In this document: positions 1-51,541 of the stretch, one piece after another | Layout: every line of letters starts with the position of its first letter | Numbering within the stretch: the stretch's first letter is position 1 | Assembly (NCBI RefSeq): GCF_003334315.1 | Contig: NZ_QOWR01000024.1 | Reading direction: 5' to 3' (one strand) | DNA from: Escherichia coli | Lineage (GTDB): Bacteria > Pseudomonadota > Gammaproteobacteria > Enterobacterales > Enterobacteriaceae | Length of the DNA: 64,000 bases | Program-made: the position numbers and the translations under genes | Notes under the pieces: generated by a model | What the model was told of the DNA's origin: nothing | The model's input: only the letters and a program-made list of their open reading frames with translations | Database searches by the model: none

Positions 1-258
1 TTATCGTGAGAGTAATTCATCGGCACGTTAAATCATATCAGGCGTAATACCACAACCCTTAAGTTAGCGCTTATGGGGTAAAACCCCGCGTACTGAATTG
101 TGATGGTTTGGTCTCCTGCACCCTTTTTTAATTTATATTGTTTATGTGAATATTATGCCTATGTTTATTATTCATATATATTACGGATGAAAATTATTTG
201 ATTATTCATAATGTAAATATTTTATTGAATGATATATATCACAGATAATTTTTAATAT
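1..258. promoter_or_regulatory. AT-rich region upstream of cas3, probable cas3 promoter and nucleoid-protein (H-NS-type) silencing target
   Basis: Bases 120-258 are very AT-rich (runs of tttatt/atatat) directly before the cas3 ATG at 259; AT-rich tracts are typical H-NS targets and cas promoters are known to be H-NS silenced in E. coli. Confidence 0.4.
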
Positions 259-2958
259 ATGCGTAAATATCCTTTAAGTTTACTGAAGGATAAAAATATT
301 GTGACTTTTTTTGATTTCTGGGGAAAAACCCGACGCGGCGAGAAAGACGGGGGCGACGACTATCACCTTCTTTGCTGGCATTCGCTGGATGTAGCCGCGA
401 TGGGCTATTTAATGGTTAAAAGAAATTGCTTCGGGCTGGCTGATTATTTTCGTCAATTAGGGATTTCTGACAAGGAACAGGCGGCTCAATTTTTCGCCTG
501 GTTGCTGTGCTGGCACGATATTGGAAAATTTGCCCGCTCTTTTCAACAACTTTACCTGCCCCCTGAACTCAAGATTCAGGAAGGTGCCAGAAAAAATTAC
601 GAAAAAATCTCTCATTCAACGCTGGGCTACTGGTTGTGGAATCATTATTTAAGTGAATGTCAGGAGTTACTTCCTTCATCTTCGCTCTCTCCGCGCAAAC
701 TTAGGCGAGTGATAGAAATGTGGATGCCCGTGACGACAGGGCATCATGGTCGGCCCCCTGATCGTATGGATGAATTGGATAATTTTCTGCCTGAAGACAA
801 AGCTGCAGCACGAGATTTTCTCCTTGAAATCAAACCACTGTTTCCGCTCATAGAGATCCCCGCATTCTGGGATGATGATGAGGGCATTGAACTTATAAAA
901 CACCTTTCCTGGTATATCTCTGCAACCGTCGTGCTCGCAGACTGGACGGGTTCGTCAACGCGATTTTTTCCACGCGTCGCACACCCAATGGATATTAAAG
1001 GTTACTGGCAGAAAACTTTAATTCAGGCTCAAAACGCCTTAACCGTCTTTCCTCTAAAAGCAAAAGTCGCGCCTTTCAACGGAATTAATACGCTGTTTCC
1101 TTTTATTGAGAATCCGACACCGTTACAGCAAAAGGTGCTGGATCTGGATATCAGCCAGCAAGGACCGCAGTTATTTATTCTGGAAGATGTGACTGGCGCA
1201 GGTAAAACAGAAGCGGCGCTTATCCTGGCGCACAGGTTGATAGCTGCGGGGAAAGCTCAGGGGCTGTTTTTTGGTCTGCCAACAATGGCAACGGCCAATG
1301 CCATGTACGATCGGCTGGTCAAAACCTGGCTTGCTTTCTATTCGCCAGAATCCCGCCCCAGCCTGGTGCTGGCACATAGTGCCCGCACATTAATGGACCG
1401 CTTTAATGAATCACTCTGGTCTGGTGATTTAGTCGGGTCAGAAGAACCGGATGAACAAACGTTCAGTCAGGGATGTGCGGCCTGGTTTGCCGACAGTAAC
1501 AAGAAGGCGTTGCTGGCTGAAATTGGCGTCGGCACGCTGGATCAGGCGATGATGGCGGTGATGCCGTTCAAACATAATAATCTGCGGCTTCTGGGGCTGA
1601 GTAACAAAATCCTGCTGGCTGATGAGATCCACGCCTGTGACGCTTACATGTCGTGCATTCTTGAAGGGTTGATCGAGCGGCAGGCGCGTGGCGGAAACAG
1701 CGTTATTTTGCTTTCTGCCACGTTATCTCAACAGCAGCGCGACAAACTCGTCGCTGCCTTTGCGCGGGGTACAGAGGGCCAGCAAGAAGCTCCGTTCCTG
1801 GAAAAGGATGATTACCCCTGGCTGACGCATGTCACGAAATCCGATGTGAACTCACACCGGGTAGCGACGCGCAAAGACGTTGAGCGTAGCGTCAGCGTGG
1901 GTTGGCTTCATAGTGAACAAGAGTGTATTGCGCGTATCGAATCGGCGGTAAGTCAGGGGAAATGCATCGCCTGGATCCGGAATTCTGTCGATGACGCTAT
2001 TAAGGTTCATCGTCAGCTGCTTGCCCGCGGCGTCATTCCTGCTTCCAGCCTTTCACTTTTTCATAGCCGCTTTGCTTTTAGCGATCGCCAGCGAATTGAA
2101 ACGGAAACGCTGGCACGCTTTGGTAAATATTGTAGTTTACAGAGAGCGTCGCAAGTCATTGTTTGTACACAAGTAATTGAGCAAAGCGTGGATATTGACC
2201 TGGACGAAATGATCTCCGACCTGGCCCCTGTTGATTTGCTGATTCAGCGAGCAGGACGATTACAGCGGCATATCCGCGATATTAATGGTCAGTTAAAGCG
2301 TGACGGAAAGGACGAGCGTTCCCCCCCTGAATTGCTGATTCTGGCTCCCGTCTGGGACGACTCTCCTGGCGACGAATGGTTTGGCAGTGCCATGCGTAAC
2401 AGTGCATTTGTCTATCCCGATCATGGGCGAATCTGGCTGACGCAGCGTGTGCTGCGTGAGCAAGGTGCTATTCAGATGCCACACGCAGCCCGGCTTCTTA
2501 TTGAATCCGTCTACGGTGAGGACGTGGTAATGCCGGAAGGATTTGCCCGCAGCGAGCAGGAGCAAGTGGGCAAATATTACTGTGATCGCGCAATGGCTAA
2601 AAAGTTTGTGCTGAACTTCAGGCCCGGCTATGCCGCCAATATCAACGATTACCTCCCGGAAAAACTGTCGACACGTCTGGCTGAGGAGTCTGTTTCCCTG
2701 TGGCTGGCTACCTGTATTGACGGTGTGGTGAAGCCTTATGCCACCGGTGCTCACGCATGGGAAATGAGCGTTGTCAGAGTGCGCCGAAGCTGGTGGAAAA
2801 AACATCGGGATGAGTTTTCTTTACTGGAGGGAGAGGCGTTCAGGCTGTGGTGCATTGAACAGCGACAAGATCCGGAGATGGCAAACGTGATTTTAGTCAA
2901 CGATGACGAAAGTTGCGGGTATTCGGCTACGGAAGGATTGATTGGCAAGGTTGGTTGA
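259..2958 (+). CDS. cas3: Cas3 HD-nuclease/SF2 helicase, type I-E (899 aa)
   Basis: N-terminal HD motifs (HLLCWHSLDVAAMG, CWHDIGKF), helicase Walker A (TGAGKTEAA) and DEIH box (LLADEIHACD); lies directly upstream of the Cascade genes. Confidence 0.93.
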   Translation: MRKYPLSLLKDKNIVTFFDFWGKTRRGEKDGGDDYHLLCWHSLDVAAMGYLMVKRNCFGLADYFRQLGISDKEQAAQFFAWLLCWHDIGKFARSFQQLYLPPELKIQEGARKNYEKISHSTLGYWLWNHYLSECQELLPSSSLSPRKLRRVIEMWMPVTTGHHGRPPDRMDELDNFLPEDKAAARDFLLEIKPLFPLIEIPAFWDDDEGIELIKHLSWYISATVVLADWTGSSTRFFPRVAHPMDIKGYWQKTLIQAQNALTVFPLKAKVAPFNGINTLFPFIENPTPLQQKVLDLDISQQGPQLFILEDVTGAGKTEAALILAHRLIAAGKAQGLFFGLPTMATANAMYDRLVKTWLAFYSPESRPSLVLAHSARTLMDRFNESLWSGDLVGSEEPDEQTFSQGCAAWFADSNKKALLAEIGVGTLDQAMMAVMPFKHNNLRLLGLSNKILLADEIHACDAYMSCILEGLIERQARGGNSVILLSATLSQQQRDKLVAAFARGTEGQQEAPFLEKDDYPWLTHVTKSDVNSHRVATRKDVERSVSVGWLHSEQECIARIESAVSQGKCIAWIRNSVDDAIKVHRQLLARGVIPASSLSLFHSRFAFSDRQRIETETLARFGKYCSLQRASQVIVCTQVIEQSVDIDLDEMISDLAPVDLLIQRAGRLQRHIRDINGQLKRDGKDERSPPELLILAPVWDDSPGDEWFGSAMRNSAFVYPDHGRIWLTQRVLREQGAIQMPHAARLLIESVYGEDVVMPEGFARSEQEQVGKYYCDRAMAKKFVLNFRPGYAANINDYLPEKLSTRLAEESVSLWLATCIDGVVKPYATGAHAWEMSVVRVRRSWWKKHRDEFSLLEGEAFRLWCIEQRQDPEMANVILVNDDESCGYSATEGLIGKVG

Positions 2959-3055
2959 GATGTCTGCGACAGGACTCTCTGAATAGTTGATACACCGAAA
3001 AGGATGGAAAGATGGACAACCGACCTGGGATGGTCTTTTTTACGAGAGGATGCGT

Positions 3056-4618
3056 ATGAACTCGTTTTCACTTCTGACAACCCCGTGGTTGCCCGTTCGT
3101 TTTAAAGACGGAACGACAGGCAAACTGGCGCCAGTCGATCTGGCGGATGAAAATGTTGTCGATATTTCTGCGCCGCGGGCAGATCTCCAGGGTGCGGTAT
3201 GGCAGTTTTTGCTGGGGCTACTACAAACCAGCTTCGCGCCAAAAGATCATCGTCGTTGGGATGATATCTGGGAAGACGGACTGGAAGCTGAAAAGCTACG
3301 GGAAGCATTGCAGTCATTAGAACATGCTTTCCAGTTTGGGCCAGATTCCCCTTCATTTATGCAGGATTTCGAGGCGCTCACCGGAGATAAAGTTCCGGTC
3401 GCTTCGCTACTGCCTGAGATTCCCGGCGCTCAAACAACGAAGTTTAATAAAGACCACTTTATCAAGCGTGGTGTAACGGAATACCTGTGCCCACATTGTT
3501 CTGCGTTAGCTCTGTTCTCCCTACAGTTGAATGCGCCGTCAGGTGGCAAAGGCTACCGCACCGGTTTACGCGGCGGTGGGCCGATGACCACTCTGATTGA
3601 ATTACAGGAATATCAGGGTAATCAACAAACTCCCTTGTGGCGCAAACTGTGGATCAATGTCATGCCGCAGGATGAAGCCGATTTACCGCTACCCAAAAAA
3701 TTTGACGATCTGGTTTTCCCCTGGCTTGGCCCGACGCGCACCAGCGAACTGGCCGGTGCGGTGGTAACCGATGAGCAGGTCAATAAACTCCAGGCGTACT
3801 GGGGAATGCCTCGCCGTATTCGTATTGATTTTAATACCACGACAGTCGGCAACTGCGATATTTGCGGTGAGCAGAGCGACGCGCTCCTGAGCCTGATGAC
3901 GACCAAAAATTACGGTGCGAATTATGCCATGTGGCAGCATCCCTTAACGCCTTACCGTGTACCACTTAAAGAGGGTGGCGAGTTTTACTCCGTTAAACCA
4001 CAACCGGGCGGTTTAATCTGGCGTGACTGGTTAGGCCTTATCGAAACGGGTAAATCAGAAAACAATACGGAACTTCCCGCGCTGGTGGTGAAACTCTTCA
4101 ATGCCAGCAGTCTCAAGCAGGCAAAAGTGGGCCTGTGGGGATTTGGCTATGATTTCGACAACATGAAAGCGCGCTGTTGGTACGAACACCATTTCCCGCT
4201 GCTGCTCGATAAAAAAGAAGGTCAGATACCGAAGCTGCGGCTGGCTGCGCAAACAGCTTCACGGATTCTAAGTCTGTTACGGAGTGCATTGAAAGAAGCA
4301 TGGTTCTCCGATCCAAAAGGTGCAAGGGGTGATTTTAGTTTTGTGGATATCGACTTCTGGAACAAAACTCAGCATCGCTTTCTGAGGTTAGTGCGCCAAA
4401 TTGAAGAAGGTCAGGATGCGGATGAATTACTCAGCAAATGGAATAAGGAAATTTGGTTATTCGCACGTCAGGATTTTGACGAGCGTGTATTCACCAATCC
4501 TTATGAGCCCGTTGATCTGGAACGCGTCATGACCGCGCGCAAGAAATATTTTACAACATCGGCGGAGAAGCAAAGTGCTAAAGCCGCCAGGGAGAAAAAG
4601 CAGGAGGCTGCTGAATGA
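3056..4618 (+). CDS. cse1: Cse1 (CasA) Cascade large subunit, about 520 aa
   Basis: First gene after cas3 in a I-E operon; start placed at MNSFSLLTTPWLPVRF by analogy with the CasA N-terminus (MNLLIDNWIPVRP) and a GAGG RBS at 3046-3049. The ORF track begins earlier at 2987, and an ATG at 3050 is an alternative. Confidence 0.8.
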   Translation: MNSFSLLTTPWLPVRFKDGTTGKLAPVDLADENVVDISAPRADLQGAVWQFLLGLLQTSFAPKDHRRWDDIWEDGLEAEKLREALQSLEHAFQFGPDSPSFMQDFEALTGDKVPVASLLPEIPGAQTTKFNKDHFIKRGVTEYLCPHCSALALFSLQLNAPSGGKGYRTGLRGGGPMTTLIELQEYQGNQQTPLWRKLWINVMPQDEADLPLPKKFDDLVFPWLGPTRTSELAGAVVTDEQVNKLQAYWGMPRRIRIDFNTTTVGNCDICGEQSDALLSLMTTKNYGANYAMWQHPLTPYRVPLKEGGEFYSVKPQPGGLIWRDWLGLIETGKSENNTELPALVVKLFNASSLKQAKVGLWGFGYDFDNMKARCWYEHHFPLLLDKKEGQIPKLRLAAQTASRILSLLRSALKEAWFSDPKGARGDFSFVDIDFWNKTQHRFLRLVRQIEEGQDADELLSKWNKEIWLFARQDFDERVFTNPYEPVDLERVMTARKKYFTTSAEKQSAKAAREKKQEAAE

Positions 4619-5151
4619 GTATTGTAAAAGAGGAGCACAAAGCCACGCTGCGCAAATGGCACGAGGAATTGCAGGAGAAACGTGGCGAACGTGCCAGTCT
4701 GCGGCGTAGTACGACGGTTAATGATGTTTGTCTGACGGATGGATTTCGCCTGTTTCTGAAGAACAGACAAATAAAGTGGCAGGATGAACCTGAGTGGCGT
4801 ATCACCGCACTGGCGCTGATAGCCGCAGTTAGCGCCAATGTTAAAGCTATTGATGAACGGCAGCCTTTTGCCGCGCAGCTGGCGGCGGTAATGTCAAAGG
4901 GGCGTTTTACTCGTCTGTCGGCAGTAAAAACACCGGATGAATTACTGCGCCAGTTACGCCGCGCAGTCAGATTATTAAACGGTTCCGTCAATCTTGACTC
5001 TCTGGCAGAGGGGGTCTTCCGTTGGTGCCAGGAGAGCGACGACCTGCTCAATCATCACCGCCGCCAGCAGCGGCCAACCGAATTTATCCGTATCCGCTGG
5101 GCGCTGGAATATTACCAGGCTGGCGACGCCGATAACGAACAAAATCAATAA
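4615..5151 (+). CDS. cse2: Cse2 (CasB) Cascade small subunit (178 aa)
   Basis: Small ORF in the Cse2 position; start overlaps the cse1 stop (ATGA-type coupling). Confidence 0.85.
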   Translation: MSIVKEEHKATLRKWHEELQEKRGERASLRRSTTVNDVCLTDGFRLFLKNRQIKWQDEPEWRITALALIAAVSANVKAIDERQPFAAQLAAVMSKGRFTRLSAVKTPDELLRQLRRAVRLLNGSVNLDSLAEGVFRWCQESDDLLNHHRRQQRPTEFIRIRWALEYYQAGDADNEQNQ

Positions 5152-5162
5152 AGGACTATCTC

Positions 5163-6218
5163 ATGACAACATTTATTCAGCTTCATTTGTTAACCGCTTA
5201 CCCTGCTGCCAACCTTAACCGTGATGATACCGGTGCGCCAAAAACTGTGGTGCTGGGTGGAGCAACGCGTCTGCGCGTTTCCTCGCAAAGTCTGAAATGT
5301 GCGTGGCGCACTTCTGCACTTTTTGAACAGGCACTGGCGGGCCATATTGGTATTCGCAGTGGGCGTATTGCGCGTGAGGCGGCAACTATCCTGATTGAGA
5401 AAGGAATCGAAGAGAAAAAAGCCATCGAATGGGCGGCAAAAATTGCAGATTATCTTGGGAAAGCTAAAAACGACAAAAAACCAAAAGATCCGCTCACTAA
5501 CGCCGAAACTGAACAGTTAGTCCATATCAGCCCGGCAGAATTTGACGCCGTAAAAGTGCTGGCCCATCAGCTTGCAGAAGAAAAGCGCGCGCCAAAAGAG
5601 GAAGATCTCGCGTTGTTACGCAAAGACCGTATGGCGGTAGATATTGCCATGTTTGGTCGTATGCTGGCGAATAAACCCGAGTTTAATGTTGAAGCCGCCT
5701 GCCAGGTAGCGCACGCATTTGGTGTCAGTGAAATGATTGTCGAAGATGATTTTTTCACCGCCGTTGATGATTTGCGCCAGGCTTCTGAAGATGCCGGTGC
5801 CGGGCATCTTGGTGAAACCGGATTCGGTTCTGCACTGTTCTACACCTATATCTGCATTGATAAAGATCTGCTGGTCGAAAACCTTGGCGGTGACGAAGCG
5901 TTAGCTAATCAGACCATACGTGCCTTTACGGAAGCCGCACTTAAAGTCTCCCCAACCGGCAAACAGAACAGCTTTGCCAGCCGTGCCTACGCCTCCTGGG
6001 CGCTGGCAGAAAAAGGCACCGATCAACCGCGTTCTCTGGCGGCAGCTTTCTATGAACCCATTAATGGCACCCGTCAGTTAGAGGTGGCGGTGCAGCGTAT
6101 TACAACTCTTCGCGAAAATATGAATACGGTCTACGAACAGAAGACCGATTACGCAAGTTTTGACGTGATGAACAAACAGGGAAGCATGAAGGACGTGCTG
6201 GACTTTATCTGCGCGTAA
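5163..6218 (+). CDS. cas7: Cas7e (CasC) Cascade backbone subunit (351 aa)
   Basis: N-terminus MTTFIQLHLLTAYPAANLNRDDTGAPK matches the Cas7e/CasC N-terminal signature (HLL..YP..NLNRDDTG) and the gene is in the expected position. Confidence 0.9.
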   Translation: MTTFIQLHLLTAYPAANLNRDDTGAPKTVVLGGATRLRVSSQSLKCAWRTSALFEQALAGHIGIRSGRIAREAATILIEKGIEEKKAIEWAAKIADYLGKAKNDKKPKDPLTNAETEQLVHISPAEFDAVKVLAHQLAEEKRAPKEEDLALLRKDRMAVDIAMFGRMLANKPEFNVEAACQVAHAFGVSEMIVEDDFFTAVDDLRQASEDAGAGHLGETGFGSALFYTYICIDKDLLVENLGGDEALANQTIRAFTEAALKVSPTGKQNSFASRAYASWALAEKGTDQPRSLAAAFYEPINGTRQLEVAVQRITTLRENMNTVYEQKTDYASFDVMNKQGSMKDVLDFICA

Positions 6219-6228
6219 GGGGCGGCTT

Positions 6229-6975
6229 ATGAGCCAATATCTGATTTTTCAGCTTCATGGGCCGATGGCGTCCTGGGGTGTCGATGCTCCAGGTGAAGTT
6301 CGTCATACCCATGAACTTCCTTCGCGCTCAGCATTGCTGGGGCTACTGGCTGCCGGGGTAGGGATTCGGCGTGATGATACCGAACGCTTAAACGCGTTTA
6401 ATCGCCACTATTCACTGGTGGTTTGCGCCAGCCGTAACCCGCGCTGGGCACGGGATTATCACACGGTCCAGATGCCAAAAGAGGTGCGTAAAGCACGTTA
6501 TTTCAGCCGTCGCGAAGAGTTGAGCGACCCTGAGCTTTTGAGCGCGATTATCTCCCGGCGCGACTACTACACCGATGCCTGGTGGATGGTGGCGGTGGCA
6601 ACAACCCCCGATGCGCCTTACAGCCTCGAACAGTTGCAGGACGGTTTACGCCATCCGGTTTTTCCGCTTTATCTGGGGCGAAAAAGTCATCCGCTGGCGT
6701 TACCACTTGCGCCGTTACTGCTCGAAGGCAACGCGTCTGATGTCTTACGTAACGCATACCAACAGTATCAGGATCGTTTCCGCGAACTGAAAGTCTCACT
6801 CCCGAAACTTCAGGATGAATGCTGGTGGGAAGGGGAGCACGATGGTTTGGTCGCAAGCAAAATATTACGCCGCCGGGATGTTCCTTTAAATCGTCAGCAG
6901 TGGCTGTTTGGGGAACGCACCATCAATCAGGGGCCGTGGCTCAGCAAGGAGGAACCATGTACCTCTCAAGAATAA
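6229..6975 (+). CDS. cas5: Cas5e (CasD) Cascade subunit (248 aa)
   Basis: N-terminus MSQYLIFQLHGPMASWG resembles the Cas5e signature (MRSYLILRLAGPMQAWG); 3' end overlaps the cas6e start by 19 nt. Confidence 0.9.
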   Translation: MSQYLIFQLHGPMASWGVDAPGEVRHTHELPSRSALLGLLAAGVGIRRDDTERLNAFNRHYSLVVCASRNPRWARDYHTVQMPKEVRKARYFSRREELSDPELLSAIISRRDYYTDAWWMVAVATTPDAPYSLEQLQDGLRHPVFPLYLGRKSHPLALPLAPLLLEGNASDVLRNAYQQYQDRFRELKVSLPKLQDECWWEGEHDGLVASKILRRRDVPLNRQQWLFGERTINQGPWLSKEEPCTSQE

Positions 6976-7603
6976 CCTTACATACCGGCCAGCTTTCGCC
7001 TGCGCAGTTGCTGCATCTGGTGGATCGCGGTGAATATGTGATGCATCAGTGGTTGTGGGATCTCTTCCCTGGCGGCAAAGAAAGGCAATTTCTTTATCGT
7101 CGGGAAGAACTCCAGGGCGCGTTTCGCTTTTTTGTCCTCTCGCAGGAACGCCCGGCAGAAAGTGAAACTTTCACCATCGAATGCCGGTCATTTACGCCCG
7201 AGCTGAGTACCGGACAACAACTTTGTTTCAACCTGCGGGCGAATCCAACAATCTGTAAAGCGGGCAAGCGCCACGATCTGCTGATGGAGGCGAAACGGCA
7301 GGTGAGGGGACAGGCGGAAGGAAGTGATGTCTGGTTGCATCAACAACAGGCGGCGCTGGACTGGCTGGCAGCGCAGGGGGAAAGAAGTGGTTTTACACTA
7401 CTGGATACCTCGGTTGATGCCTACCGACAACAACAACTCCGGCGGGAAAACTCCTGGCAACTGATCCAGTTCAGTAGTGTGGATTATACGGGGATGCTTA
7501 CGGTCACCGATCCTGGGTTATTTCTGCAACGTCTCAGTCAGGGGTATGGCAAAAGCCGGGCGTTCGGTTGTGGTCTGATGCTGATCAAACCTGGAGCAGA
7601 GGC

Positions 7604-7607
<4 letters not shown>
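6957..7607 (+). CDS. cas6e: Cas6e (CasE) pre-crRNA endoribonuclease (216 aa)
   Basis: Start placed at the internal ATG at 6957 (MYLSRITLHTG), matching the CasE N-terminus MYLS; C-terminal GCGLM motif. The ORF track start at 6819 is an artificial 5' extension. Confidence 0.88.
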
Positions 7608-8817
<1,210 letters not shown>

Positions 8818-8912
8818 GTTATCCGTTCTTTAAAAATAAGGAAATGTTTTAATTTAGTTGGTAGATTGTTGATGCGGAATAAATTTGTTTAAAACAGTTA
8901 TGTATGCTTAGT
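8818..8912 (+). promoter_or_regulatory. CRISPR leader (AT-rich), contains the array promoter and probable IHF-bending region
   Basis: About 95 bp of AT-rich sequence between the cas2 stop and the first repeat, the standard I-E leader position. Confidence 0.75.
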
Positions 8913-9429
8913 GTGTTCCCCGCGCCAGCGGGGATAAACCGGAGCGTAGAGATTCTCGAAACCGATCCGGACGGTGTTCCCCGCGCCAGCGGGGATAAAC
9001 CGAATAAATAATAATCCAGTAGCCCCATGTATTAGTGTTCCCCGCGCCAGCGGGTATAAACCGGTAATAAAAAATATTCTATTTCTGCTGAATCAGTGTT
9101 CCCCGCGCCAGCGGGGATAAACCGCTTGCGAGCAAAAGATCCAGGCCGAGAAAGACGTGTTCCCCGCGCCAGCGGGGATAAACCGCGATAACCGCGTCAG
9201 TATTGGACAGGATATCAGTGTTCCCCGCGCCAGCGGGGATAAACCGAATCTATTGTGAATTTGAAATGGTCCAGCACTGTGTTCCCCGCGCCAGCGGGGA
9301 TAAACCGGGTAAAAACACGGTCTGAACCGACATTCATGTGTGTTCCCCGCGTCAGCGGGGATAAACCGGGCGCACTGGATGCGATGATGGATATCACTTG
9401 GAGTTCCCCGCCCCTGCGGTAGAACTCCC
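8913..9429 (+). CRISPR. Type I-E CRISPR array: 9 repeats of 29 bp (last one degenerate) and 8 spacers of 32 bp
   Basis: Repeat GTGTTCCCCGCGCCAGCGGGGATAAACCG at 8913, 8974, 9035, 9096, 9157, 9218, 9279, 9340 with a strict 61-bp period; repeat 3 has GGGTATAAACC, repeat 8 has GCGTCAGC; terminal degenerate repeat GAGTTCCCCGCCCCTGCGGTAGAACTCCC at 9401-9429. Spacers at 8942-8973, 9003-9034, 9064-9095, 9125-9156, 9186-9217, 9247-9278, 9308-9339, 9369-9400. Confidence 0.97.
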
Positions 9430-42504: not shown

Positions 42505-43271
42505 TGAGCAATTTATTAGGCCCCCGTGACGCCAACGGCATTCCGGTCCCCATGACGGTGGATGAATCCATCGCCAGCATGAAGGCGTCGTTACTGAAAA
42601 AAATCAAACGTTCTGCCTATGTTTACCGCGTGGACTGCGGCGGCTGCAACGGTTGCGAAATCGAAATTTTCGCCACTTTATCGCCGCTGTTTGATGCAGA
42701 ACGCTTCGGCATTAAAGTCGTTCCTTCACCGCGTCATGCGGATATTTTACTGTTTACCGGCGCGGTCACCCGTGCAATGCGATCCCCTGCGCTGCGTGCG
42801 TGGCAGTCCGCGCCGGACCCGAAAATTTGTATCTCCTACGGTGCCTGCGGTAACAGCGGCGGGATCTTCCACGATCTCTACTGCGTGTGGGGCGGTACGG
42901 ATAAAATTGTCCCTGTGGATGTTTATATCCCTGGCTGCCCGCCAACGCCTGCCGCCACGCTGTACGGCTTTGCAATGGCGCTCGGCCTGCTGGAGCAGAA
43001 AATTCACGCCCGTGGGCCGGGTGAACTGGATGAACAACCGGCGGAGATCCTGCATGGCGATATGGTGCAGCCGCTGCGCGTGAAAGTGGATCGCGAAGCA
43101 CGTCGCCTGGCGGGTTATCGTTACGGTCGTCAGATTGCCGATGATTACCTTACACAGTTAGGGCAGGGCGAAGAACAGGTTGCACGCTGGCTGGAAGCGG
43201 AAAACGATCCGCGTCTGAACGAGATTGTCAGCCATCTGAATCATGTTGTTGAAGAGGCGCGTATCCGATGA
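42504..43271 (+). CDS. hycG: Hydrogenase 3 small subunit HycG (NuoB-like, 255 aa)
   Basis: NuoB-like Cys motifs (CGGCNGC, GCPP). Confidence 0.95.
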
Positions 43272-43678
43272 GTGAAAAGGTGGTGTTCAGTCAACTGAGC
43301 CGTAAATTTATTGATGAGAACGATGCCACGCCCGCCGAGGCGCAGCAGGTGGTCTATTACAGCCTGGCGATTGGTCACCACCTTGGGGTTATCGATTGCC
43401 TGGAAGCGGCGCTCACCTGCCCGTGGGATGAATATCTGGCATGGATTGCCACTCTGGAGGCAGGCAGTGAAGCCCGCCGCAAAATGGAAGGCGTGCCGAA
43501 ATATGGTGAGATCGTCATCGACATTAACCATGTGCCGATGCTGGCCAACGCATTCGATAAAGCCCGGGCAGCGCAAACTTCGCAGCAGCAGGAATGGAGT
43601 ACAATGCTGTTAAGTATGCTGCATGATATTCATCAGGAAAACGCCATCTATTTGATGGTGAGGAGACTGCGTGACTGA
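43268..43678 (+). CDS. hycH: FHL maturation protein HycH (136 aa)
   Basis: Conserved position; 4-nt overlap with hycG. Confidence 0.9.
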
Positions 43679-44141
43679 CGTTTTACTCTGTGTTGGCAAT
43701 AGCATGATGGGCGATGATGGCGCAGGTCCGCTGCTGGCGGAAAAGTGCGCCGCCGCGCCGAAAGGTAACTGGGTGGTGATTGACGGCGGTAGCGCACCGG
43801 AAAACGACATCGTCGCTATCCGTGAACTGCGCCCGACACGACTGCTGATTGTCGACGCCACGGATATGGGGCTAAACCCCGGCGAGATCCGCATCATCGA
43901 CCCGGATGATATCGCCGAGATGTTTATGATGACTACCCATAACATGCCGTTGAATTACCTTATCGACCAGTTGAAAGAAGATATTGGCGAAGTGATTTTC
44001 CTCGGCATTCAGCCGGATATCGTCGGCTTTTACTACCCGATGACCCAGCCGATTAAAGATGCGGTAGAAACCGTTTATCAACGACTGGAAGGCTGGGAAG
44101 GAAATGGCGGCTTCGCGCAGTTAGCGGTGGAAGAAGAGTAG
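43671..44141 (+). CDS. hycI: Hydrogenase 3 maturation endopeptidase HycI (156 aa)
   Basis: N-terminus [20 protein letters not shown] is typical of hydrogenase maturation proteases. Confidence 0.93.
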   Translation: MTDVLLCVGNSMMGDDGAGPLLAEKCAAAPKGNWVVIDGGSAPENDIVAIRELRPTRLLIVDATDMGLNPGEIRIIDPDDIAEMFMMTTHNMPLNYLIDQLKEDIGEVIFLGIQPDIVGFYYPMTQPIKDAVETVYQRLEGWEGNGGFAQLAVEEE

Positions 44142-44211
44142 TTTTTCATTAAGGAATCAGGACAGGGATGTTCTTGATGGGGTGAACCAGCTCTGATGCC
44201 AAATGCTAAAT

Positions 44212-44292
44212 TGCCCGATGCGCTGCGCTTATCGGGCCTTCATGGTTCGTGCGACATGTAGGCCGGATAAGGCGTTCACGCCGCATCCGGCA
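44212..44292. repeat. REP/BIME element (two REP palindromes) between hycI and ascB
   Basis: gcccgatgcgctgcgcttatcgggcc and gtaggccggataaggcgttcacgccgcatccggca, the canonical REP consensus (GCCGGATAAGGCGTT...). Confidence 0.85.
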
Positions 44293-44299
44293 CTGTTAC

Positions 44300-47190
<2,891 letters not shown>

Positions 47191-47273
47191 CGGATTTTAT
47201 CCTGTTATCAGTAGGGTAGATGTAGTTGTTATCAGTCGACGTGACGGAAAAATGCCGATGCTGAAACGGAATT

Positions 47274-47289
47274 AAGAAACCGGTTTCAC
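47274..47289. promoter_or_regulatory. AscG-type operator palindrome in the ascF-ascG divergent promoter region
   Basis: Perfect 12-bp palindrome GAAACCGGTTTC at 47276-47287; a related half-site TGAAACCGGTCAC lies at 47351-47363. Confidence 0.6.
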
Positions 47290-47449
47290 AAAATCATGAA
47301 TAGTTGTCACTAAATAAGCAAGAGAGTGAATTGTTCATTTTTTATATTTGTGAAACCGGTCACCTGAATATTTTTCCCGCCGATTGTGCAAGGACAATCG
47401 GCAAACGGTGCAGTACACTGCGTTGATTGCGTGTAAAGGGATGAAAATG

Positions 47450-48460
47450 ATGACGACGATGCTGGAAGTGGCGAAGCGCGCCGGGGTTTCAAAAGCGACC
47501 GTTTCCCGCGTGCTTTCAGGTAATGGCTACGTCAGCCAGGAGACTAAAGATCGCGTGTTTCAGGCGGTAGAAGAGAGCGGTTACCGTCCAAACTTGCTGG
47601 CGCGCAATCTGTCGGCGAAGAGTACTCAGACGCTGGGGCTGGTAGTGACCAACACGCTTTACCACGGCATTTATTTTAGTGAATTACTCTTTCATGCCGC
47701 GCGAATGGCGGAAGAGAAAGGGCGGCAGTTGCTATTGGCAGATGGTAAACACAGCGCAGAAGAAGAGCGCCAGGCGATTCAGTATCTGCTGGATCTGCGC
47801 TGCGACGCGATCATGATTTACCCGCGTTTTTTAAGCGTGGATGAGATCGATGACATCATTGACGCGCACAGTCAGCCGATAATGGTGCTTAATCGCCGCC
47901 TGCGCAAAAACAGCAGCCATAGCGTCTGGTGCGATCATAAACAGACCAGTTTTAACGCCGTGGCAGAGTTGATAAACGCCGGGCATCAGGAGATTGCTTT
48001 CCTTACCGGCTCGATGGATTCCCCCACCAGCATTGAACGTCTTGCCGGGTATAAAGACGCGCTGGCGCAGCATGGTATTGCGCTCAATGAAAAACTTATC
48101 GCTAACGGTAAATGGACGCCTGCCAGCGGGGCCGAAGGGGTAGAAATGTTGCTCGAACGTGGGGCTAAATTTAGCGCGTTAGTTGCCAGTAACGACGATA
48201 TGGCGATAGGTGCGATGAAAGCGTTACACGAGCGCGGCGTAGCGGTGCCAGAGCAGGTGTCAGTTATCGGATTCGATGATATCGCTATTGCCCCCTACAC
48301 CGTTCCGGCGCTCTCCAGCGTAAAAATTCCGGTGACTGAGATGATTCAGGAAATTATTGGACGGCTGATTTTTATGCTCGATGGCGGGGATTTCTCACCG
48401 CCGAAAACCTTCAGCGGAAAACTGATCCGCCGCGACTCACTCATTGCTCCTTCGCGATAA
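47450..48460 (+). CDS. ascG: LacI/GalR-family repressor AscG (336 aa)
   Basis: N-terminal HTH (MLEVAKRAGVSKATVSRVL) and periplasmic-binding-protein-like effector domain; reading frame intact. Confidence 0.93.
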   Translation: MTTMLEVAKRAGVSKATVSRVLSGNGYVSQETKDRVFQAVEESGYRPNLLARNLSAKSTQTLGLVVTNTLYHGIYFSELLFHAARMAEEKGRQLLLADGKHSAEEERQAIQYLLDLRCDAIMIYPRFLSVDEIDDIIDAHSQPIMVLNRRLRKNSSHSVWCDHKQTSFNAVAELINAGHQEIAFLTGSMDSPTSIERLAGYKDALAQHGIALNEKLIANGKWTPASGAEGVEMLLERGAKFSALVASNDDMAIGAMKALHERGVAVPEQVSVIGFDDIAIAPYTVPALSSVKIPVTEMIQEIIGRLIFMLDGGDFSPPKTFSGKLIRRDSLIAPSR

Positions 48461-48608
48461 ACATTGTCATCACATGTCATCGTCACTAGTGTCGATGACA
48501 TCGTTTTTCCTGCATTACAGAAATTAATTTCCTTAAATAACAGTAAATTAAAAACTGGCATGATTTGTGAATGTATCGGCGCATTAACTGTCATTGCTGG
48601 AGAATTTG

Positions 48609-49136
48609 ATGAACCGTTTCATCATTGCTGACGCGAGTAAATGTATTGGTTGCCGTACCTGTGAAGTAGCGTGCGTGGTTTCTCATCAGGAAAATCAGGA
48701 TTGTGCATCGCTGACCCCGGAAACTTTTTTACCGCGTATCCATGTCATTAAAGGTGTGAACATTTCCACGGCGACAGTTTGCCGTCAGTGTGAAGATGCA
48801 CCGTGCGCTAACGTCTGCCCGAATGGTGCTATCAGCCGTGATAAAGGGTTTGTTCATGTGATGCAGGAACGTTGCATTGGTTGCAAAACCTGCGTTGTGG
48901 CTTGCCCGTATGGTGCGATGGAAGTGGTGGTACGTCCGGTGATCCGCAACAGCGGCGCGGGTCTGAATGTACGGGCTGACAAAGCCGAAGCCAATAAATG
49001 CGACCTGTGCAACCATCGTGAAGACGGCCCGGCGTGTATGGCGGCTTGCCCGACTCATGCGCTGATTTGTGTCGATCGTAATAAACTTGAACAACTGAGC
49101 GCAGAAAAACGCCGCCGTACGGCGCTGATGTTCTAA
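48609..49136 (+). CDS. hydN: Formate dehydrogenase-H associated ferredoxin-type electron transfer protein HydN (175 aa)
   Basis: Four Cys clusters of 4Fe-4S type; [23 protein letters not shown]-terminus. Confidence 0.93.
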
Positions 49137-49288: not shown

Positions 49289-51541
49289 ATGGCAAAAAAC
49301 ACATCTTGCGGTGTCCAACTGCGTATTCGTGGCAAAGTGCAGGGCGTCGGTTTTCGTCCGTTTGTCTGGCAGCTGGCACAGCAATTAAATCTTCACGGCG
49401 ATGTCTGTAATGACGGCGATGGCGTAGAAGTCCGGCTGCGGGAAGACCCGGAAACGTTTCTTGTTCAATTGTATCAGCACTGCCCGCCGCTGGCGCGTAT
49501 TGATAGCGTCGAGCGTGAGCCGTTTATCTGGTCACAACTGCCCACCGAGTTCACTATACGCCAGAGCACAGGCGGCACCATGAATACGCAAATTGTTCCC
49601 GATGCCGCTACTTGCCCTGCTTGCCTTGCCGAAATGAATACCCCAGGCGAACGGCGTTATCGTTATCCGTTTATCAACTGTACCCACTGCGGCCCGCGTT
49701 TCACCATTATTCGCGCCATGCCTTACGACCGCCCGTTTACCGTGATGGCGGCGTTTCCGCTATGTCCGGCCTGTGACAAAGAGTACCGTGACCCGCTCGA
49801 TCGTCGCTTCCACGCCCAGCCGGTGGCCTGCCCGGAGTGTGGCCCGCATCTTGAATGGGTAAGTCATGGTGAACATGCGGAACAAGAGGCGGCATTACAG
49901 GCAGCTATCGCACAGTTAAAAATGGGCAAAATTGTCGCCATCAAAGGGATTGGCGGATTTCATCTTGCCTGCGATGCACGTAACAGTAACGCGGTGGCGA
50001 CACTTCGGGCGCGCAAACATCGCCCGGCGAAACCGCTGGCGGTCATGTTGCCAGTGGCTGACGGTTTACCAGACGCTGCGCGCCAGTTGCTTACCACGCC
50101 CGCCGCGCCGATTGTGCTGGTGGATAAAAAATACGTTCCTGAGCTTTGTGATGATATCGCCCCTGACCTTAACGAAGTCGGGGTAATGTTGCCTGCGAAC
50201 CCGCTCCAGCATTTGCTGTTACAGGAACTGCAATGCCCGCTGGTGATGACCTCCGGCAACCTGAGCGGTAAACCACCAGCTATCAGCAACGAACAGGCGC
50301 TGGCGGATTTGCAGGGCATTGCCGACGGATTTTTGATACATAACCGCGACATCGTGCAGCGGATGGATGATTCGGTGGTGCGCGAAAGCGGCGAAATGCT
50401 GCGCCGTTCGCGGGGGTATGTGCCGGATGCGCTGGCTTTGCCTCCGGGCTTTAAAAATGTTCCGCCTGTGCTGTGTCTCGGCGCGGATCTGAAAAATACC
50501 TTCTGCCTGGTGCGCGGTGAACAAGCGGTGTTGAGTCAGCATCTGGGCGATTTAAGTGACGATGGCATCCAGATGCAGTGGCGCGAAGCGTTACGCCTGA
50601 TGCAAAACATCTACGATTTCACCCCGCAATACGTTGTGCATGACGCACATCCGGGCTATGTCTCCAGCCAGTGGGCGCGCGAAATGAATCTGCCGACGCA
50701 AACGGTGCTGCATCATCATGCCCACGCAGCGGCGTGTCTGGCAGAGCATCAGTGGCCGCTGGATGGCGGTGATGTCATTGCTTTGACGCTCGACGGTATC
50801 GGTATGGGGGAGAATGGCGCTTTGTGGGGCGGCGAGTGCCTGCGGGTGAACTATCGCGAATGTGAGCACCTGGGCGGCTTGCCTGCAGTGGCGCTTGCTG
50901 GTGGCGATTTGGCGGCGAAGCAGCCGTGGCGAAACCTGCTGGCGCAGTGCCTGCGCTTTGTGCCGGAGTGGCAGAATTATCCCGAAACAGCGAGTGTGCA
51001 ACAGCAAAACTGGAGCGTGCTGGCGCGGGCCATTGAGCGTGGAATTAACGCGCCGCTGGCGTCATCGTGTGGGCGTTTTTTCGATGCAGTGGCGGCGGCA
51101 CTGGGCTGTGCGCCAGCCACGTTAAGTTATGAAGGTGAAGCGGCTTGTGCTCTGGAGGCGCTCGCAGCCTCATGCCACGGAGTGACGCATCCGGTGACAA
51201 TGCCGCGGGTGGACAATCAACTGGATCTCGCCACTTTCTGGCAGCAGTGGCTGAACTGGCAGGCACCGGTTAATCAACGCGCGTGGGCGTTTCATGATGC
51301 GCTGGCGCAGGGTTTTGCCGCGTTGATGCGTGAGCAGGCCACGATGCGTGGTATCACTACGCTGGTATTTAGCGGCGGGGTTATTCATAACCGTTTGCTG
51401 CGTGCACGTCTGGCGCATTATCTCGCTGATTTCACATTGCTCTTTCCACAGAGTTTACCGGCGGGTGATGGCGGTTTGTCTCTGGGGCAGGGGGTTATTG
51501 CTGCGGCGCGTTGGTTAGCGGGTGAAGTCCAGAACGGATAA
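49289..51541 (+). CDS. hypF: Carbamoyltransferase HypF (hydrogenase maturation, 750 aa)
   Basis: Acylphosphatase-like N-terminus ([18 protein letters not shown]), two Zn-finger CxxC pairs, YrdC-like and Kae1-like domains; start at MAKNTSCG (the track is extended 24 codons). Confidence 0.95.

Follow-up and report, generated by a model that had tools for sequence, protein, structure and literature searches.

The 64,000-nt stretch of Escherichia coli DNA analysed here (the window) carries an asc locus which is very probably the ordinary E. coli ascG/ascFB system in its wild-type, repressed configuration. Reading of the sequence together with the listing of its open reading frames gave a divergent order, with ascB-ascF on the minus strand, ascG on the plus strand and a 259-bp gap between the two transcription units. 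The locus is placed in the hycI/hydN interval, matching the annotated order and coordinates of MG1655. Nothing new was found at the locus itself, both the observation and its interpretation being already known from textbooks. Routine annotation is thus confirmed: the asc system is of the K-12 type, and no fermentation of salicin, arbutin or cellobiose via asc is to be expected without a mutation in ascG.

When positions 44200-48600 were compared by megablast with 5426 complete E. coli genomes, all of the 4401 bases (4401/4401) were aligned without gaps and with 100% identity to many strains. These included K-12 MG1655, C600 and J53, in which the genes are annotated as ascB, ascF and ascG. In a comparison with the matching 64 kb of MG1655, zero differences were observed over positions 43059-48700, a segment which comprises ascB, ascF, the control region and ascG. 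A first, sequence-only reading of the window had held that no insertion interrupts the locus, and the two alignments bear this out. The three coding sequences and the 259-bp control region are base-identical to the K-12 asc operon (Hall & Xu 1992; Ishida, Kori & Ishihama 2009). As the locus is sequence-identical to that of K-12, the published K-12 results apply directly to it.

The window as a whole comes from E. coli but not from K-12, since positions 19858-64000 share 99.42% identity with MG1655. The asc locus, coding and non-coding parts alike, is therefore a K-12 allele inside the chromosome of another strain. Unlike the locus, at which no difference from K-12 was found, the surrounding chromosome is about 99.4% identical elsewhere and carries another type I-E CRISPR-Cas allele at 1-9340. 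Clusters of SNPs were observed on both flanks of the asc locus, with 14 differences in 50332-50992 (hypF) and 36 over the 38-39 kb bins. This mosaic structure of the chromosome is consistent with recombination. Positions 1-9340, which encode the type I-E CRISPR-Cas system (cas3, casA-E, cas1, cas2), gave no BLAST alignment to K-12 MG1655, and the allele present there is 99.9% identical to that of ET490, DAM and ANT, among others. The CRISPR array (8974-9124) is very short, with about 2.5 repeats (GTGTTCCCCGCGCCAGCGGGGATAAACCG).

Among the 5426 complete genomes, ascG and the control region were recovered as one uninterrupted match in 4699 (87%). In about 727 others (~13%) the asc locus was entirely missing and only the hydN-proximal flank was kept. 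Matches split over ascG and the control region occurred in only 2 records, so that natural disruption of ascG by insertion sequences is rare in this collection. In E. coli ATCC 25922 (locus L007, positions 1605-3770), the slot between hycI and hydN was occupied by a hypothetical gene, a HigB-family toxin with its HTH antitoxin (higBA-like) and another hypothetical gene.

The three genes of the locus are intact, as judged from their translations and from the MG1655 annotation. On the minus strand, ascB (44300-45724) encodes a 6-phospho-beta-glucosidase of family GH1 (474 aa) and ascF (45733-47190) a PTS cellobiose/arbutin/salicin IIBC component (485 aa). On the plus strand, ascG (47450-48460) encodes a repressor of the LacI/GalR family (336 aa). 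AscB matched the NCBIfam model NF007356 over its full length with 1088 bits (cut-off 623), as a GH1 6-phospho-beta-glucosidase, and AscF the equivalog model NF007311, also over its full length, with 1025 bits (cut-off 722), as a IIBC transporter; a IIA domain is absent from AscF. The complete reading frame ascribed earlier to ascG was verified: its 336 codons contain no stop, and the product is 100% identical to PDB entries 3DBI and 3BRQ, which are crystallised AscG, the latter bearing that name. The precomputed Pfam assignments of the AscG cluster are PF00356, PF00532, PF13377 and PF13407, that is, Peripla_BP domains beside a LacI-type HTH. Furthermore, AscG was aligned over its full length with the CcpA, PurR and LacI structures and shows the LacI/GalR domain layout. 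Among the NCBIfam models there is none specific for AscG, and the best match was GalR, with 222 bits, below the cut-off of 557 of that model. The G+C content of the asc genes (0.47-0.60) corresponds to ordinary E. coli composition, with no AT-rich island. An E. coli-like metagenome scaffold (L137, positions 1-2421) combined a K-12-type control region with an ascG shortened to 306 aa and an ascF split into calls of 159 aa and 290 aa, so that both genes are true pseudogenes or else products of misassembly.

For the analysis of the control region, two sets of related promoters were used. A protein search yielded AscG orthologues with 76-86% identity in Citrobacter, Kosakonia, Klebsiella, Leclercia, Yokenella, Brenneria, Kluyvera, Lelliottia and Raoultella. 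All nine orthologue contigs that were fetched (9/9) have the divergent ascB-ascF / ascG arrangement, and in six of the nine a hydN-like ferredoxin gene adjoins ascG. The protein-anchored alignment comprised 11 orthologous intergenic regions from 10 genera and revealed three conserved islands amid diverged DNA. In the 11 regions, the first island, AAACCGGTTyCACAAAATCATGAATAGTT, holds the operator O1 described below. The second, ATTTTTTATATTyGTGA-N6-ATCAC, lies at the second site, and the third, GTGmAGTACACTGCG, is located about 30 bp upstream of ascG. A wider sample was obtained by scanning DNA, one genome per species, with a pattern derived from the first block, which returned at least 120 loci. 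Among those listed, 117 were enterobacterial asc-type promoters and 3 were chance matches, and 115 regions were usable. Some bases of O1 and of the -10 element are fixed by the scan pattern, and their independent conservation is read from the protein-anchored alignment only.

The divergent control region (47191-47449; 259 bp, 40% G+C) is identical to that of MG1655. Its limits had been correctly set by the sequence-only reading: the ascF start codon ends at 47190, the ATG of ascG is at 47450, and RefSeq MG1655 agrees. The operator O1, AGAAACCGGTTTCA, occupies 47275-47288, and its 12-nt core at 47276-47287 is the perfect palindrome GAAACCGGTTTC that had been pointed out there, of which no other exact copy exists in the 64-kb window. 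O1 agrees with the AscG consensus TGAAACCGGTTTCA at 13 of 14 positions. In Table S3 of PMC8667592, the AscG site of PascF is given as TGAAACCGGTTTCT, which is the reverse complement of window positions 47275-47288. In that work, AscG acting through the PascF site repressed a synthetic promoter strongly if the site stood at +1, and hardly at all if it stood at -61. On the basis of these data, obtained with the identical 14-mer, O1 is a functional AscG site.

The conservation of O1 was high in both sets. The core AACCGGTT is invariant in 11/11 protein-anchored orthologous regions, and the 12-nt palindrome in four aligned E. coli alleles. The symmetrised first-site consensus of the 115 regions among the matches listed is TGTGAAACCGGTTTCACA. 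The operator consensus TGTGAAACC/GGTTTCACA is palindromic with a central CG step, as in the operators of LacI/GalR systems, which span 14-18 bp, and O1 contains the perfect 12-nt core. Chance occurrence was estimated with dinucleotide shuffles of the intergenic region. The idea that a 12-nt palindrome would be statistically striking by itself was rejected, because 7.6% of the shuffles have one and 15 are present in the window. Further AscG-like matches at 5813, 8232, 39181, 61449 and 3057, with 2-3 mismatches and located in coding regions, were set aside as due to chance.

The putative ascF promoter, PascF, was located on the minus strand by conservation. Its -10 element, CATGAT (47293-47298), corresponds to ATCATG, which is found in 9/11 protein-anchored regions, and is separated by a 17-nt spacer from a putative -35 element, TTGCTT (47316-47321). 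In the protein-anchored alignment CAAG (47319-47322) is invariant, and among the matches listed nearly all of the 115 regions have a TTGnnn hexamer in the -35 register; the separation between the TTG-containing -35 and the ATCATG -10 is fixed. These predicted elements would place the start of ascF transcription near 47286, the centre of O1 at about +5.5 and the CRP box, described below, at about -70.5. O1 would consequently overlie the predicted start. Class I CRP boxes have the form TGTGA-N6-TCACA and are centred near -61.5, -71.5 or -82.5, so the CRP box of PascF would be close to a class I position. A scan with the sigma-70 consensus detected no promoter in the control region and none near the reported internal ascB start. 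For PascF, such a null result is expected of a weak, activator-dependent promoter. The position of O1 near the predicted start would allow an effective block by AscG, matching the +1 result of PMC8667592.

Two further start regions deserve mention. Upstream of ascG, the plus-strand block GTGCAGTACACTGCG (47408-47422) is conserved in 10 genera, with T47409, G47410, A47412-A47415, A47417-T47419 and C47421 invariant. This block probably holds the -10 element of the ascG promoter (TACACT, 47414-47419, with AGGACA at 47391-47396 as -35); alternatively, it may be a site for another factor. An imperfect inverted repeat, GCAGT-AC-ACTGC, is present within the block in E. coli only. Within ascF, an internal start located 1419 nt from the start codon is reported to drive ascB (PMC4488073). 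This corresponds approximately to position 45772 on the minus strand, where the window has the sequence of the ascB_RBS oligo of that work. No AscG-like site near this internal start was found in the window scan.

The second site of the control region had been described as a site related to the palindrome, TGAAACCGGTCAC, at 47351-47363. Its location was right; its nature is chiefly that of a conserved CRP box containing an AscG half-site, and not that of a second palindrome. The CRP box TGTGAAACCGGTCACC (TGTGA-N6-TCACC, 47349-47364) agrees with the consensus at 9/10 half-site positions and is one of three matches with at most one mismatch within the 64 kb. It overlaps the AscG-like site O2, TGAAACCGGTCACC (47351-47364), which agrees with the AscG consensus at 11/14 positions and lacks the right half-site. 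The AscG consensus given in the 2009 Ishida abstract is reportedly TGAAACC-GGTTTCA, and one AscG site is said there to overlap a CRP box. The overlap of CRP and AscG binding at O2 is proposed here from that description together with the sequence.

Among the matches listed, a GTGA-N6-TC box was present in 115/115 related promoters of Enterobacterales, and its distance to the centre of O1 was 74-75 bp in 110/115 regions. The six bases between its half-sites vary greatly, and 66 different hexamers occur there in the 115 regions among the matches listed. Since the half-sites are kept in every region whereas the spacer is hypervariable, it is the CRP box that is conserved at the second site. The spacer AACCGG was found in only 4 sequences, all of Escherichia, and AACCGA in 5 sequences of Kluyvera, among the matches listed. 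When scored on the box with the first-site matrix, the Escherichia sequences reached 13.3 bits and those of Kluyvera at most 6.3 bits, and the best second-site score had a median of -20.8 over the regions, again among the matches listed. The AACCGG spacer is unchanged between Escherichia lineages even where their AscG sequences diverge by as much as ~5%; additional sampling of Escherichia gave only E. coli-like variants with an unchanged control region. E. coli O145 RM9872 has a change in the second site (GAAGCCGG / TGTGAAGCCGGTCACC) at the equivalent of window position 47355, by which the AscG-like half-site is weaker and the CRP half-sites are unaffected.

The asc-type loci of Citrobacter, Klebsiella, Enterobacter, Kosakonia, Leclercia, Pantoea, Serratia and further Enterobacterales share the layout of the E. 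coli locus, the O1 block and a CRP box 74-75 bp away. They differ in the second site, as these loci, among the matches listed, have no AscG-like spacer in the CRP box and hence no O2; only Kluyvera has such a spacer in part. The Escherichia AscG proteins also differ from their orthologues by four substitutions, A55S, V74I, I185L and G194S. With conservation of at least 95% as the criterion, A55, V74, I185 and G194 were found in 98-100% of 104 orthologues from other genera. In the window, the corresponding plus-strand codons (47612-47614, 47669-47671, 48002-48004 and 48029-48031) code for S, I, L and S. The position after Leu54, residue 55, would belong to the DNA-contacting hinge helix, which repressors of the LacI/PurR type insert at the centre of the operator, and residue 194 would adjoin the positions that contact the inducer in LacI. 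In 'Escherichia sp. ESNIH1', S55 is present and the other three Escherichia substitutions are absent. The operator/promoter/CRP-box layout is thus common to Enterobacterales, whereas O2 and the four AscG substitutions are, among the matches listed, restricted to Escherichia. The restricted features offer a testable handle on why E. coli retains an apparently silent operon.

The repression mechanism that we propose is as follows. AscG, the product of its own divergent gene, is a dimeric repressor of the LacI/GalR type. By binding to O1 (47275-47288), over the start predicted for the ascF promoter, which is taken to be weak and CRP-dependent, it would block RNA polymerase. In Escherichia, a second AscG dimer would also occupy the weaker site O2 (47351-47364), inside the spacer of the CRP box ~70 bp upstream, and would there compete with the cAMP-CRP activator. 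As AscG has no known inducer and the AscF transporter is itself repressed, arbutin, salicin and cellobiose would not switch the operon on as long as ascG is active.

This proposed arrangement resembles that of the lac operon, in which a LacI-family repressor acts on a palindromic operator at or over the start of a CRP-activated promoter, with an auxiliary operator upstream. The two differ in that LacI has a known inducer, is a tetramer and loops DNA, whereas AscG is without a known inducer and the auxiliary site of asc sits within the CRP box itself. With a LacI-AscG chimera, there was no evidence for looping (PMC3505978). The bgl operon is also comparable to asc, as it serves arbutin and salicin, is silent in the wild type and is activated by IS insertions. 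However, bgl is silenced by H-NS, its activating insertions lie upstream of the promoter, and BglG acts by antitermination, whereas asc has a dedicated repressor, is activated by knockout of that repressor and shows no AT-rich composition.

The role assigned to O2 has to be weighed against the view that O1 is the sole real operator and that O2 is a pure CRP site with a chance AscG-like half-site and no part in repression. The CRP half-sites are kept while the spacer is unrelated in 106/115 promoters among the matches listed, and O2 itself is imperfect, with 11/14 positions and no right half-site; moreover, AscG hardly influenced the test promoter from a site at -61 (PMC8667592). Against this stand the two AscG binding sites reported for ascFB (PMC3505978, citing Ishida 2009). 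In addition, O1 and O2 have in common a 14-nt perfect inverted repeat (ACCGGTTTCACAAA / TTTGTGAAACCGGT), with a perfect match, TTTGTGAAACCGGT, between O2 and the right half of O1, a coincidence reproduced by no more than 4 of 20000 shuffles. The AACCGG spacer has also been retained in the Escherichia lineages despite a divergence of AscG of up to ~5%. A single functional operator is considered quite unlikely, and the reading with an AscG contact at both O1 and O2 is retained. A bolder extension of it is that the Escherichia-only O2, by which the repressor would evict its own activator, could together with A55S and G194S of AscG lock an otherwise inducible operon, crypticity then being an innovation of the Escherichia lineage; this proposal is speculative, and we regard it as unlikely.

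How cryptic asc is in fact depends on the substrate, and crypticity is not absolute. According to PMC3505978 (citing Hall & Xu 1992) and PMC4403981, ascFB is transcribed only on disruption of ascG, for instance by IS186. The earlier statement that ascFB is silent unless ascG is disrupted holds, on this cited K-12 work, for arbutin, salicin and cellobiose; it is too strong for ascB, given the growth on cellobionic acid and the internal promoter. Cellobionic acid supports growth of MG1655, BL21 and XL1-Blue without any mutation, and in strain AL17, which has no asc mutations, deletion of ascB abolishes this growth (PMC4403981). Some expression, of ascB at least, therefore takes place in the presence of an intact AscG. 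These observations on K-12 and B strains also favour the possibility that asc is not truly cryptic, but a normal catabolic operon with an inducible AscG whose true substrate or inducer (cellobionate, cellobiose-6-P) was merely not tested. A comparative genomics study assigned cellobiose-6-phosphate as the effector of AscG (PMC4052901), by which the system would be inducible in principle. The intact locus in 87% of the 5426 genomes, the near lack of split copies and a promoter architecture conserved in many genera point in the same direction, since such retention argues for selection on function. On the other hand, PMC3505978 states that no effector of AscG is known and that induction needed mutation, the reported AscG-independent internal promoter could supply ascB without derepression of PascF (PMC4488073), and the cellobionate transporter is not known (PMC4403981). 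An ordinary, inducible asc operon is regarded as possible though doubtful. The view that nucleoid proteins are the main silencers, with AscG secondary, draws on the silencing of bgl by H-NS (PMC2646131, PMC9678765) and on the 40% G+C of the asc intergenic region. However, the asc genes have an ordinary G+C content (0.47-0.60) with no AT-rich island, which makes silencing of the bgl type unlikely, and disruption of ascG alone activates the operon (PMC3505978, PMC4403981). We hold a leading role of H-NS at asc to be extremely improbable.

Repression by AscG thus remains the preferred reading for the strain studied. The predicted repression of arbutin, salicin and cellobiose use via asc found support in the K-12-identical locus, the intact ascG and the known operator O1, and the strain is expected, from its sequence, to use none of the three sugars by this route. 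As the window carries no information on bgl and chb, this prediction covers only the phenotype 'via asc'.

The combination of operator, -10 element and CRP box also occurs on large plasmids, namely of Pantoea agglomerans, of P. ananatis (pPANA1) and of an entry filed as Pseudomonas sp. T1-3-2 (plasmid p1). A distinct subtype of the module, CATGAGAAACCGGTTTCAC...ATATGAAATC, was observed in Pantoea, Erwinia and Enterobacter. The plasmid copies and this subtype suggest paralogous or mobile asc-like operons.
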